DNA of 47,708 nt from Odoribacteraceae bacterium (GCA_031266545.1 JAISAV010000078.1:1-47708); one strand, 5' to 3'. Counted from the stretch's first letter, positions 12,092 through 19,302 are shown. A program made the numbers and translations. Notes: generated by a model from the letters alone, not told the origin.

Positions 12092-13321
12092 ATGAGAAAA
12101 CTAATGAGTGTATCTAATGTTGTTTGCCTCGCCGCGCTGGTGATGGCATTCGGTTCCTGCAAAAAAGAAGCTGCAGGGGACAGAGGTGAAACGGGAACCC
12201 TTGAGGCGAAGATTATCTTCGGGGGGACGGCGTCGCGTGCCACTTCAAAGGCTATTCCACTGACATCGTGGAAGAGCATCAAGCAAATCCAGATGTTTTT
12301 GTACGATCAAGCTGGGAAAATCAAGTTCTCGGACACGATTCTCCCGCCACAAACCGGTATCATACAGAGAACGTGGTCGATGGTACCGGCGGGAACCTAC
12401 ACGCTGGCGATCGTGGCTAACGCCAAGAGTAGCACGGATAACGTGCACACGATGATCGGCACGTCAGCGTTGGCATGGACGGGGATGAACGTGCGGAACC
12501 AGACCATCGCCGACTTGGACATCCAGCACAAGGCATCGGCCTTTCCAACGGCTATCAGCGGTATGTTTTCCAGTACCCAGTTAAAGCCATTCCAGGAGCC
12601 GTCAGAGGTCTTCATGGCTTATGCCACGGGCGTGACGATCACGTCAGGCACGACGACAGATATTACCGCGAACCCGTTACAGTTGAAACGGGAGGTGTCC
12701 CTGATGCGCGTGCGCTTGCGGGTGAATGACAAGGGTCAACTGTTTGACAACTCGGACATCGATTTCACCCATGCTCAAACGTCGTTGCTGATCTACACGC
12801 TGCCTGCCGACATGAATATTAGCGAGGGTAACGCCGGTGGCGTCTCCACGACGTCGGACGACAAGGCCGTCCTGGTGGCCGCTGATGGCGCCACGACTTT
12901 CCGCACGGGTGACCCGACAACCGCCACGCATAACCCGATCGGGATCGTCGATGCCGATTACACGCATTGGAAAGAGGTCGTCGTGTTCCCGAACAATGGT
13001 GGCCGGGCTGTCACGACCCCTAACGTTAACGCTCCCACGACGCAACGTTATTACGTGGTAATTACCGCTCACGCCCCGAAAGATCACCTCTTGAGCGACG
13101 GCTCGAAGGTCACGGATGCCGGTGGCACGTTGATACACTGGGCAGGTTTGGTGGAGGGCGCGTTCTCGCCGAACACGATCCGGGAGGTGAACCTGAACTT
13201 GTCTTCCGGCGGCGCGACCGGCGTTCCCACGGAGCCGGCCAAGGAAGGTGGTCTTACCATCAAGATCAACGATCCGCTTCCCTGGAGTTCGAACATCGAG
13301 TCAACGTCTTTAGATATTTAA
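12092..13321 (+). CDS. FimA/Mfa1-like type V pilin (fimbrillin-family lipoprotein), putative stalk subunit
   Basis: Lipoprotein signal MRKLMSVSNVVCLAALVMAFGSC (alternative ATG at 12104). About 400 aa and Thr/Ser/Gly-rich. Fimbrillin-like segments (EVFMAYATGVTITSG, NPLQLKREVSLMRVRL). Followed by an Mfa2-like gene. Family call is from pattern recognition only. Confidence 0.6.
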   Translation: MRKLMSVSNVVCLAALVMAFGSCKKEAAGDRGETGTLEAKIIFGGTASRATSKAIPLTSWKSIKQIQMFLYDQAGKIKFSDTILPPQTGIIQRTWSMVPAGTYTLAIVANAKSSTDNVHTMIGTSALAWTGMNVRNQTIADLDIQHKASAFPTAISGMFSSTQLKPFQEPSEVFMAYATGVTITSGTTTDITANPLQLKREVSLMRVRLRVNDKGQLFDNSDIDFTHAQTSLLIYTLPADMNISEGNAGGVSTTSDDKAVLVAADGATTFRTGDPTTATHNPIGIVDADYTHWKEVVVFPNNGGRAVTTPNVNAPTTQRYYVVITAHAPKDHLLSDGSKVTDAGGTLIHWAGLVEGAFSPNTIREVNLNLSSGGATGVPTEPAKEGGLTIKINDPLPWSSNIESTSLDI

Positions 13322-13338
13322 ACCACGAGAGATCTGTC

Positions 13339-13381
13339 GAGAAAAGGCGGGGCGCGGCCAACCACCCGTCCCGCCCTTCTC
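13339..13381 (+). other. Imperfect GC-rich stem-loop between the pilin and anchor genes
   Basis: GAGAA..GGCGGGGCG / CGTCCCGCC..TTCTC. That is 5 bp plus 9 bp with a small internal loop and one G.U, and a 12-nt loop. Starts 18 nt after the pilin stop. No U-tract. Confidence 0.3.
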
Positions 13382-16802: not shown

Positions 16803-16830
16803 CGATAATTACGAGCAAAATAAACGAACC

Positions 16831-19302
16831 ATGAAAAAGAAATTTTTGATTTTATCGCTGTTAAGCCTCTTGTTTGCGGGCGAGTTGTTTGCGCAATCCA
16901 TGCCGGTCGTTTTTGACAAGCGTTACGGGGAGGGCGGCAAGCTACAACAAATCACGTTTGTCGCCGGGGACGAGATCGCGTTCACCGGCAAGAAGGATGG
17001 CGGGCTGTTCCTCTCGTGGCTGGACCGCGCCGGGGCGGTGGTTTTCTCCAAGACGATGGCGGGTTTCACGGAAATCAACCAGCTCAAGGAGCTGGCGGGT
17101 GAGCACCTGCTCGTCGTGGGCCAGTCCTCGAACTTGAAGGCGAGGATGGCCACGAAAGGAAAGAAATCCGACGAGGCGGTCGAGACGGCCCTCGTCGGGC
17201 GCGCCCTGATCCTCAACCGGGCGGGGGAGCTGATCGCCGACTACTACGTCGGTGACCCGGGCACCTCCTTGCTACAGGGGGAGCTGACGCGCGACAAGGA
17301 GGTGATCCTCGCCGGCTACGAGAAGCGCCGTGACGGCAAGCGCCGTGGCATCTTGACGAAGCTCGGCGAGAGCGGACGCGTGATCTACAAGTACATCTCG
17401 CCCCACGGCTCGGTGTGCTCCCGCTTCGAGGTGCTGGGCCACGCCACGGAATACGTCTGCGCGGCTTTCTCCACCGACGAGGATGCCGCCGCGGCCAGCG
17501 TCGTGCGGCTGGACAACCACGGGAAGCCCTACTACATGACCCTCCTCCCTGCCAAGGGCTTCACCTGCACGGGAATTAACGCGCGGGCGATGGACGGCTC
17601 CATGCTCGTCATCGGTCACTCGACCCACGAGGGGGTGATCATCTACAAGGTGCGCCCGGAGGGGGACATCGTCTTTGCCAAGACGATCGTGCCGGCCACG
17701 GGTCAATCCCTCGAGTTCCTGCACGTCTCGCGCGCCGGCACGATCCTCGCGGGCGGGAATGACGGCACCCAGGGCTACTACGCGATGCTCCGCGAGGATG
17801 GGACGACGCTCTTCTCGCGGCGCGTGGACGGCGGCGTCTCTTGCCTCAAGATGGACCCCGGCACCGGCGGGGCGATCGTCACCGCCTTCGACCCGGTCAC
17901 CGGGAGCGGCTCCCTGATCAAGTTATCGGACGGCGGGAAGGTGGAATTTGAGACGGCCGTCGACGGCTTCTTCGACAATATCCGCATTACCCCTTCCGGC
18001 GAGGCCATGCTGCTCTCGCGTCTCGAGGGCCGGGTGAGCGTCTACTCCTCCTTCGGCGCCTTGCTCTCCGACGGCTACATCGCGGGCAAGAAGGCCTCCG
18101 CTTACGACGGTTCGCTGATCGCCACCTCCGGCGAGGCCATCTTCTGGGGCATGGATAACCGCGTGGTCAAGCTCGGCCACGGCCTCTACATCTCGGACGT
18201 GAAGATCACGAAACCGGTCAACGGCGTCGCCACGGCCCTCTTCACGGTGACGCTCACCGGCTTCGCCACCAACGCGGAGGGAGTTGCCCTGCCCGTGAGC
18301 GTCGCCTACGCCACGCGCCCCGGCTCCGCGAGCGAGGCTGACCACTTCGTGCCCATCAACGGTCGCCTCTCCTTCATCCCCGCGAAAGGGGATGCAAGCC
18401 GCTACCAGATGAAGCAAGAGGTAGAGATCCCTATCAAGGCCAACGACCGCGTCGAGGGGACGAAAGAGTTCGAGGTGAGGCTGTCGGGCGTCGAGCAGAG
18501 CTACCTGATCAAGTCCTCCGGCAAGGGGATGATCGAGGACCAGCAGGCGCTCGTCAAGCTCGTCCGCGTCGAGGACGGGATCGAGGGGATGAAAGACGTC
18601 GTCTACGAGGTGGGCCTCTTCAAGACGGACGGCACCCCCCTGTCGAACGCCACGGGCACGGACATCGTGCTGGACGGTAACTACGGCGAGGGCACTGCGG
18701 ACGCCCTCGATTTCGACATGAGCGTCCCCCCGCGGGTCGTGATCCCGAACGGGCGCCATTCCGGCAAGTTCAACGTCAAGACGCTGGAAGATACCCGCTA
18801 CGAGTTGCCGAAGAGCGTCATCGTCAACTTCACCAAGGCCTACTCGCTGAACGGGACGAAAGTCTCCTTCGAGGGTGCGCAACTGGCCTGTACCGGCACC
18901 GTGATTGACCAACCGGCCGTGCTCGTGCTCTCCTCGTTGGGCGATCACCGCGTGAACAACAACGTGGTCTCCGGCTTCTTCACCCTTTCCCTGTGCCGGG
19001 CCTCCGACGGGGCGCCCATCACGAACGCCACCGGCGCCGAGATCACCATCTCGCTGGCCATCGACCCCGCCACCACCGCCCGCGAGGGGAAGGACTTCGT
19101 CCTCACCAACCAGCACGACCTGCGCGTTGACGGCACCGGCGGCCACGGTTCGGTGAACCTCTACGGCGTGGTGCTGCACGACAGTTCGAGCGAGGATCAC
19201 GTGCTCAAGATGTCGATCGAGCGCGTGGACGCCCCCACCGGCGCCCTGCCCGTCACCGTCAAGCCGGAGGGCAAGTCGGCCTCCTTCACGATCAAGCGTT
19301 AA
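16831..19302 (+). CDS. Secreted beta-propeller-like / triple Calx-beta domain protein
   Basis: ORF 16768..19302, trimmed to ATG 16831 (MKKKFLILSLLSLLFAGELFAQ). The N-terminal half shows about 7-8 blade-like repeats of about 45 aa. The C-terminal half has three Calx-beta-like modules (e.g. ATALFTVTLTG..VSVAYATRPGSASEADHFVPINGRLSFIPAKGD..VEIPIKANDRVEGTKEFEVRLSG). Confidence 0.75.
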   Translation: MKKKFLILSLLSLLFAGELFAQSMPVVFDKRYGEGGKLQQITFVAGDEIAFTGKKDGGLFLSWLDRAGAVVFSKTMAGFTEINQLKELAGEHLLVVGQSSNLKARMATKGKKSDEAVETALVGRALILNRAGELIADYYVGDPGTSLLQGELTRDKEVILAGYEKRRDGKRRGILTKLGESGRVIYKYISPHGSVCSRFEVLGHATEYVCAAFSTDEDAAAASVVRLDNHGKPYYMTLLPAKGFTCTGINARAMDGSMLVIGHSTHEGVIIYKVRPEGDIVFAKTIVPATGQSLEFLHVSRAGTILAGGNDGTQGYYAMLREDGTTLFSRRVDGGVSCLKMDPGTGGAIVTAFDPVTGSGSLIKLSDGGKVEFETAVDGFFDNIRITPSGEAMLLSRLEGRVSVYSSFGALLSDGYIAGKKASAYDGSLIATSGEAIFWGMDNRVVKLGHGLYISDVKITKPVNGVATALFTVTLTGFATNAEGVALPVSVAYATRPGSASEADHFVPINGRLSFIPAKGDASRYQMKQEVEIPIKANDRVEGTKEFEVRLSGVEQSYLIKSSGKGMIEDQQALVKLVRVEDGIEGMKDVVYEVGLFKTDGTPLSNATGTDIVLDGNYGEGTADALDFDMSVPPRVVIPNGRHSGKFNVKTLEDTRYELPKSVIVNFTKAYSLNGTKVSFEGAQLACTGTVIDQPAVLVLSSLGDHRVNNNVVSGFFTLSLCRASDGAPITNATGAEITISLAIDPATTAREGKDFVLTNQHDLRVDGTGGHGSVNLYGVVLHDSSSEDHVLKMSIERVDAPTGALPVTVKPEGKSASFTIKR

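Follow-up and report, generated by a model that had tools for sequence, protein, structure and literature searches.

What holds a type V pilus in the bacterial envelope, beyond the lipid of its anchor pilin? The question is raised by a cluster of five genes in a 47,708-nucleotide (nt) stretch of DNA from an Odoribacteraceae bacterium (GCA_031266545.1 JAISAV010000078.1:1-47708), the whole of which is called the window here. The five open reading frames (ORFs), g1 to g5, are codirectional on the + strand and separated by 114, 15, 4 and 28 nt, as an earlier sequence-only reading of this DNA had described. Based on homology and gene context, we propose that they specify a type V pilus-like fiber with a dedicated peptidoglycan-tethering module, a reading that we hold at a probability of about 0.6. 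Its direct basis is the gene order, the folds, the protein families and the linkage of the genes in two classes of loci, whose outer membrane barrels belong to DUF3575 and PorP/SprF, respectively; every contact between the proteins, the location of g5, cleavage and polymerization are what we infer from it.

The g1 product matched the Pfam family Mfa2 (PF08842) at 32 bits (cutoff, 21.2), and most of its relatives carry the same domain. An AlphaFold2 (AF2) model of g1 had a predicted local distance difference test score (pLDDT) of 85.6 and a predicted template modeling score (pTM) of 0.84. In a Foldseek comparison, its 34 best PDB matches were all type V pilins, with E values down to 6e-13, and included FimA prepilins and Mfa1-4 (Mfa2 among them), indicating that the modeled protein is a two-domain type V pilin fold. 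The signal peptide ends with a lipobox (...AFGSC) whose Cys23 is near-invariant in an alignment of 38 homologues; the A1 strand follows at residues 34-43, and the C-terminal segment is conserved as well. An Arg or Lys recurs in the same homologues a few residues ahead of a conserved A-x-STAIPxTSW motif. In the window this residue is Arg49, a candidate prodomain cleavage site at the position where stalk pilins are cut. Thus, the earlier description of g1 as a FimA/Mfa1-like lipoprotein pilin was upheld by family, lipobox and fold, and the Arg/Lys prodomain site that it had proposed to look for has a plausible counterpart. In the public annotation, g1 is 392 amino acids (aa) long, with a start that falls within the signal peptide (window 12092-12145), whereas the homologues favor Met1 or Met5 of the 409-aa ORF as the start.

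Mfa2 was also matched by the g2 product, at 29.5 bits against the same cutoff of 21.2, and by 11 of the 17 members of its family. Its lipobox (...YASC) ends with Cys25, which is invariant in the g2 alignment and directly precedes a conserved TYDYF(V/E)DETNY stretch, giving an invariant core C-T-x-D-Y-F-x-D and no prodomain. The size of g2, about 300 aa, and its place right after the stalk gene are consistent with an anchor pilin of the FimB/Mfa2 type, as the sequence-only reading had it.

The third gene encodes a DUF3575 barrel, as had been claimed: g3 matched PF12099 over its full length at 141.4 bits (cutoff, 21.1). It also gave a weak match to the Pfam Autotransporter beta-domain, above the cutoff at 30.4 bits, and has a type I signal peptide that ends in ...SLA, followed by QS. 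Searches of PDB sequences with g1 and g3 returned no match. The g4 product consists of an N-terminal helical region, a PD40 beta-propeller and an OmpA_C domain, in agreement with the TPR/PD40/OmpA_C architecture assigned to it before; the Pfam scores were 43.2 bits for OmpA (PF00691; cutoff, 27.2) and 25.4 bits for PD40, also above the cutoff. The Asp/Arg wall-binding motif of OmpA_C domains, GYADxxG...LSxRRA, is conserved in g4 (sequence GYADEVGEDTYNQRLSTRRA), and the PDB sequence matches of g4 were OmpA_C domains, including those of PorE (6top) and OmpA. The OmpA_C domain of g4 is therefore a predicted peptidoglycan binder.

The last protein, g5, is the least familiar component. It has a type I signal peptide that ends in FA, and the predicted mature protein begins with a Gln (QSMPVVF). 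No lipobox was present, and neither Pfam nor NCBIfam gave a match of g5 to a type IX secretion system (T9SS) sorting domain of type A, B or C, all of which had been read correctly from the sequence; a distant relative in locus L086 likewise had no sorting-domain match. In the AF2 model (pLDDT, 88.4; pTM, 0.72), residues ~25-450 form ~38 strands arranged as a propeller with roughly nine blades, best fitted in Foldseek by designed 9- and 10-blade propellers (TMt 0.74-0.76), and residues ~460-823 form three Calx-beta-like sandwiches. The sandwiches matched the Calx-beta domains of NCX1 (CBD12) with E values of ~1e-9 at 15-19% identity. The best whole-chain matches were integrin alpha chains (integrin alphaV, E 2e-14), which the modeled layout of g5 resembles. 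The earlier description of g5 as a propeller with three Calx-beta modules is thus supported by the model and the NCX1 matches but not by Pfam, in which Calx-beta (PF03160) scored 22.9 bits over a single stretch, under the cutoff of 27; a PF03160 match is on record for many g5 relatives. We regard the sandwiches as having a Calx-beta fold according to the model, and calcium binding is only predicted.

Full-length relatives of g5 are few. About 12 were found among 1.84 billion representative sequences, all other matches being to one Calx-beta stretch, and a PDB sequence search gave chance-level matches only. The length of the protein is steady among relatives, at about 820 aa. Its mature N terminus (AQ-x-MP-x-VF) and its propeller are kept in loci of the DUF3575 class and in those of the PorP class.

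We scanned one genome per species with the g5 alignment, which yielded 59 loci with near full-length g5 relatives, and the ORFs of these loci were searched with the five window proteins. Gene order was counted in those loci whose sequence extended 5.2 kb or more upstream of the g5 relative. The order g1-g2-g3-g4-g5 was kept in 50 of 51 such loci (47 of 48 without three loci added by exact look-up), with median gaps of 110, 24, 11 and 17 nt. The linkage of the five genes is far beyond chance, and the neighborhood conservation proposed earlier as a check was thus found. The closest relatives of the window locus are metagenome-assembled genomes (MAGs) of Odoribacteraceae. The module also occurs in Bacteroides, Mediterranea, Butyricimonas, Dysgonomonas, Proteiniphilum, Rikenellaceae/Alistipes and, among the Marinilabiliales, in a Saccharicrinis MAG and a Mangrovibacterium MAG; culturable gut carriers include Butyricimonas virosa, Bacteroides hominis, B. 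fragilis strains and Dysgonomonas. Compared with the window proteins, median identity was highest for g3 (63%), followed by g5 (49%), with g1, g2 and g4 at 40-41%. That g3 and g5 are better conserved than the pilins is as expected of machinery rather than of exposed subunits.

The sole exception to the gene order is a second g5 paralogue in Odoribacteraceae MAGs (L006, 9998-16160). This paralogue, 56% identical to g5 and without g1-g4, lies after rpoBC and before a gene for a lipoprotein of 1128 aa. Over its first ~320 residues, the lipoprotein is 29% identical (E 1e-32) to the product of the gene after g5 in B. fragilis-type loci, and the paralogue locus could supply an adhesin in trans.

The more distant relatives of g5 lie in another context. 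Those at 36-37% identity were still in DUF3575-type loci, whereas all five relatives at 26-34% (P0379, P0380, P0383, P0384 and P0387) came after a PorP/SprF gene and a g4 homologue. The PorP/SprF assignment was clear (TIGR03519, 214-222 bits against a cutoff of 90.55), and g4 was 26% identical over 519 aa (E 3e-36) to the product of the OmpA gene located after PorP/SprF in L086. Seven loci were fetched for the distant relatives, and in five of them a giant gene adjoins the trio of PorP/SprF, g4 and g5 homologues. Four of these five giants had a Pfam CHU_C match and/or a subthreshold NCBIfam type-B sorting match, the fifth having no domain record. One member of the PorP class is from Danxiaibacter flavus (Chitinophagaceae). 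An 11.7-kb contig (L084, 1-11661, and L085) with Rep3, ParA and resolvase genes carries the PorP/SprF, PorE-like and g5-like trio only; the two contigs resemble a small plasmid, on which the trio appears to travel.

Judging from these sequence comparisons, g4 and g5 form a portable pair used with differing barrels and surface proteins. Because the pair is common to pilin loci and PorP/SprF-type loci, we read g3-g4-g5 as a wall-tethering base, and a pilus-related structure with a tether to the cell wall, already suggested by the sequence-only reading, gains support from the protein families, the gene linkage and the presence of g4 and g5 in PorP-class loci. The same sharing supports a mosaic origin of the cluster. 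A composite origin had been suggested before from a lower GC content of the pilin genes, and this proved only roughly right: GC was 55.9% for g1, 56.8% for g2, 57.3% for g3, 60.8% for g4 and 64.2% for g5. As an argument, however, GC is weak, and we rejected it as a sign of recent transfer, since a gradient of 56-64% falls within the 55-72% of the remaining window genes and the gene order is ancient.

Which known systems does the cluster resemble? A lipoprotein stalk pilin gene directly before an Mfa2/FimB-family anchor gene is found in the type V pili of Porphyromonas gingivalis (FimA-E, Mfa1-5), which also share the pilin fold of g1 and the Arg/Lys at the point of prodomain cleavage. The first gene of the fim cluster in P. 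gingivalis is a DUF3575 gene, fimX (listed as PGN_0178). In contrast, the window has no tip or accessory pilins, its DUF3575 gene comes after the pilins and not before them, and it adds the PorE-like and propeller/Calx-beta proteins. The second comparison is with the phase-variable clusters of Bacteroides and Phocaeicola. In B. fragilis, the seven coregulated genes BF3397-BF3403 encode an Mfa2-family protein, a 310-aa lipoprotein, an OmpA-family protein and a DUF3575 protein, and their deletion in an ON/ON background abolishes vesiculation (PMC4747536); BF3403 and PGN_0178 are listed there as DUF3575 orthologues (Table S1 of PMC4747536). The counterpart cluster of Phocaeicola vulgatus (BVU2678-2683) has been associated with a surface-stained Mfa1 protein and autoaggregation. 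Besides an Mfa2-family protein, a lipoprotein of ~310 aa, and OmpA-family and DUF3575 proteins in one coregulated unit, these clusters share an adjacent tyrosine recombinase gene with the relatives of the window locus, and the inverted repeats of L001, a B. fragilis-type relative, have a closely similar core. They differ from the window in gene order and in having no g5 homologue; BF3402 combines DUF4480, CarboxypepD_reg and OmpA, whereas g4 has PD40 and OmpA, and the window copy has no switch. Calling the cluster noncanonical, as the sequence-only reading did, was thus an overstatement: DUF3575 and OmpA-family genes beside type V pilins are already known. The novelty lies in g5, in a g4 of the PD40 type and in the link with loci of the PorP class.

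That link leads to the T9SS. A barrel gene followed by a helical/propeller/OmpA_C gene is the arrangement of PorP-PorE in P. gingivalis and of the porP-like/porE-like pairs of Flavobacterium johnsoniae, and g4 and g5 homologues trail true PorP/SprF genes, with giant adhesin genes mostly adjoining. In P. gingivalis, PorE binds to the PorP barrel, PorP to the type-B surface protein PG1035, and PorE's C-terminal domain to peptidoglycan; it has been proposed that nonmobile type-B proteins are tied to the wall via PorP-PorE-like pairs (PMC9143113). The window differs in that the barrel next to g4 is a DUF3575 protein and not the PorP/SprF partner of the PorE family, its surface proteins are lipoprotein pilins and not T9SS cargo, and g4 has no carboxypeptidase-regulatory-like domain. 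No g5-like partner is mentioned in the papers on PorP-PorE that were read. Similarly, a literature search of limited extent found no paper joining Calx-beta to Mfa2, DUF3575, DUF3868, PorE-like or PorP-like proteins; Calx-beta and type V pili occur together in one paper, a general review.

These comparisons suggest the following mechanism, with the five genes as the conserved core of a surface-fiber locus of Bacteroidales. The g1 and g2 products would be exported as lipoproteins, g1 being the polymerizing stalk pilin. A surface protease specific for Arg/Lys would cut the g1 prodomain near Arg49, and the cut subunits would join via strand exchange, while g2 would retain its lipid and thereby anchor and terminate the fiber. 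At the base of the fiber, g3, g4 and g5 would form an envelope-anchoring module in which the small g3 barrel takes the place of PorP, g4 binds g3 through its helical and propeller part and peptidoglycan through OmpA_C, and g5 serves as a conserved periplasmic scaffold. A broader proposal, which we put forward tentatively and consider somewhat less probable than not, is that g4, g5 and an interchangeable outer membrane barrel make up a portable wall-anchoring cassette that is independent of the adhesin and has moved between T9SS type-B adhesins, with PorP/SprF, and type V pili, with DUF3575.

Several observations weigh against a wall-tethered fiber. Neither the g2 sequence nor a g2 profile matched any PDB sequence. 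No similarity was found between g3 and PorP/SprF, and the g3-g4 contact is therefore drawn by analogy only. The NCBIfam PorE model (NF052230) gave g4 153.5 bits over residues 42-447, so far under the cutoff of 600 that we call it PorE-like rather than PorE; its B. fragilis-type relative scored 163 bits and the PorP-linked ones 144-158 bits. The N terminus ends in a type I site in g4 as in its relatives, with no conserved lipobox cysteine, so that g4 is not a lipoprotein and has no lipid anchor of the PorE kind. A search of sequencing runs found the window sequence only in DNA runs of termite gut metagenomes and in no RNA run. Lastly, P. gingivalis makes fimbriae from fimA alone, without fimX and pgmA (PMC3436787). 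The DUF3575 gene is thus unneeded for polymerization there, which argues against an assembly role and is compatible with anchoring or regulation.

It may be instead that g5 is a functional Ca-binding surface adhesin, exported perhaps via or with g3 and exposed on the pilus or next to it as a substitute for tip pilins, much as the sequence-only reading had imagined. The propeller and Calx-beta layout, shared with integrin alpha chains and many extracellular adhesins, the weak autotransporter match of g3 and the absence of a tip pilin from the window would fit such a role. Nevertheless, we consider it unlikely: g5 carries only a type I signal, without lipobox or sorting domain, is constant in length and better conserved than the pilins (49% versus 40-41%), and a ~180-aa barrel is small for the passage of a folded 800-aa protein. 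Moreover, most relatives have additional pilin-like or adhesin genes after g5, so that the Calx-beta protein does not stand in for tip pilins and the window is better seen as a trimmed core, and the PorP-class loci have a separate giant protein as the obvious adhesin.

The cluster might also build no fiber and mainly remodel the envelope, through vesicles or links between outer membrane and wall, given that BF3397-BF3403, of similar makeup and coregulated, is needed for hypervesiculation (PMC4747536). This appears improbable to us, as hypervesiculation also requires an extracellular polysaccharide locus, the BF3397-BF3403 proteins were absent from an earlier vesicle-enriched proteome cited in PMC4747536, BF3402 differs in domains from g4, and g5 has no counterpart in the B. 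fragilis cluster. A fiber is also favored by the surface staining of Mfa1 and the autoaggregation linked to the homologous P. vulgatus cluster, and the two roles are not mutually exclusive. Least likely, in our estimation, is that g3-g5 are an export or assembly device, such as an usher-like platform or a periplasmic chaperone, for the pilins or the downstream adhesins, and no static anchor. In its favor, type V pili are not known to have a dedicated assembly factor, the L006 paralogue stands with a large lipoprotein gene only, without g1-g4, and the mature N terminus and propeller of g5 are conserved in both locus classes. However, FimA polymerizes without the other fim-cluster genes (PMC3436787), OmpA_C domains are wall-binding and not transport modules, and no energy source or POTRA-like element was detected in g3, g4 or g5 with Pfam and NCBIfam.

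The window copy of the proposed fiber-and-tether locus is simpler than most others. In most relatives, a tyrosine recombinase and/or an AraC regulator gene lies upstream of the cluster, and further pilin-like or giant adhesin genes usually follow g5. Inverted repeats were examined in two of these loci. In L001, the B. fragilis-type locus, 248 nt of the DNA separating the recombinase gene from g1 are bounded by a perfect inverted repeat of 23 nt whose core is GTTAC-N7-GTAAC, and in L003, from Dysgonomonas hofstadii, a perfect 23-nt inverted repeat surrounds the AraC gene; the same design has been reported for the Tsr16 locus of B. fragilis. We considered and rejected the identity of L001 with the Tsr15/aap fimbrial operon: the g5 cluster belongs to B. 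hominis and some B. fragilis strains, and the scan of species representatives returned B. hominis loci and none titled B. fragilis.

Downstream of g5, the B. fragilis-type loci encode an Mfa2/Fimbrillin_C protein and a BACON-bearing 862-aa protein, and those of Dysgonomonas encode FimA- and Mfa2-family proteins, a small barrel, a bactofilin and a 1450-aa protein. A single family of downstream pilins was tried and discarded, as the single-linkage cluster c0 proved to be mixed, the 862-aa and 552-aa proteins of B. fragilis-type loci being dissimilar. The 1450-aa protein (L003, 16395-20747) has a T9SS sorting domain of type C/A above the cutoff, so that in Dysgonomonas T9SS cargo and type V pilins are encoded in one operon. 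Species of the B. fragilis group are not known to have a T9SS. Small bactofilin genes (PF04519), an odd companion for an envelope locus, recur beside or within the operon in Bacteroides (L001, 3219-3647), Dysgonomonas (L003, 21801-22262) and Saccharicrinis (L059, 13865-14299). In the Mangrovibacterium MAG (L092, 1-18569), the module adjoins a gene for a TraG-like coupling protein, which hints at carriage by a conjugative element, and three giant DUF285 proteins follow.

No ORF in the 47.7 kb of the window matched the accessory clusters of the relatives (tip/accessory pilin, recombinase, AraC) at an E value of 1e-3 or below, and the tip pilins that the sequence-only reading had described as absent are indeed not there. 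No repeats of an invertible promoter were found in 11773-12091 either, the best candidate being an imperfect 13-nt inverted repeat at 85%, and the window holds no adjacent tyrosine recombinase gene of a phase-variable operon. The two closest Odoribacteraceae loci have the same reduced form, dnaG followed by g1 to g5. The window locus is thus a core-only copy that probably lacks the switch.

The layout of the locus is summarized in Table 1. It lies between dnaG (9727-11772), upstream of g1, and a convergent gene for a DUF5723 protein, downstream of g5. The short gaps of 4-28 nt from g2 to g5, the hairpin after g1 in most loci and the terminator after g5 are operon-like signs. Upstream of g1, the Bacteroidetes -7 motif TAnnTTTG had no exact match, the candidates with one mismatch being at 12047 and 12055, and we therefore claim no promoter there. 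Folding of the whole g1-g2 spacer in the window gave -36.9 kcal/mol, with a z score of just -1.7. Most other loci have a long hairpin of unrelated sequence in the equivalent ~110-nt spacer, with z scores of -3 to -8; such strong hairpins fit a greater output from the first gene. At the other end, the hairpin at 19342-19375 is preceded by an A-run and trailed by a T-run, and it is the end of the cluster.

Table 1. Features of the g1-g5 locus, in window coordinates
Feature	Coordinates	Strand	Basis or remarks
Intergenic region between dnaG and g1	11773-12091	+	319 nt, 39% GC; presumed promoter site
g1, type V stalk-like pilin, lipoprotein precursor, 409 aa	12092-13321	+	Pfam Mfa2, AF2 model, Foldseek
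Stem-loop in the g1-g2 spacer, candidate attenuator or mRNA-stabilizing hairpin	13336-13383	+	Folding
g2, Mfa2/FimB-family anchor-like pilin, 309 aa	13436-14365	+	Pfam Mfa2, lipobox, alignment
g3, DUF3575 small outer membrane beta-barrel, 199 aa	14381-14980	+	Pfam DUF3575
g4, PorE-like periplasmic protein, 605 aa	14985-16802	+	Pfam OmpA and PD40
g5, propeller and three Calx-beta-like sandwiches, 823 aa from ATG	16831-19302	+	AF2 model, Foldseek
Terminator-like hairpin, bidirectional, separating g5 from the convergent DUF5723 gene	19342-19375	.	15-pair stem, 8 G-C pairs

Elsewhere in the window, base composition shifts abruptly near 41 kb: the ilvD-ilvB-ilvC-ilvA block (41157-47101) has a GC content of 69-72% and a GC content at third codon positions (GC3) of 0.92-0.95, compared with 55-64% for most of the window. 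On the - strand, 26959-39553 encodes a SusC/SusD pair amid three proteins with fasciclin domains, one of them with DUF5108 in addition, and a 711-aa protein without a Pfam match.

This family of loci offers a testable answer to the question of what, besides the lipid of the anchor pilin, retains type V pili in the envelope, and it bears on why fimX-like DUF3575 genes and OmpA-family genes accompany pilin genes. The proposed set comprises a barrel, a wall-binding protein and a conserved scaffold, two of which are common to the PorP-PorE system that anchors T9SS adhesins. If wall anchoring does depend on a portable cassette, g5 would be an unrecognized core component of it, and DUF3575 proteins, including the fimX product, would couple the bases of type V pili to peptidoglycan.

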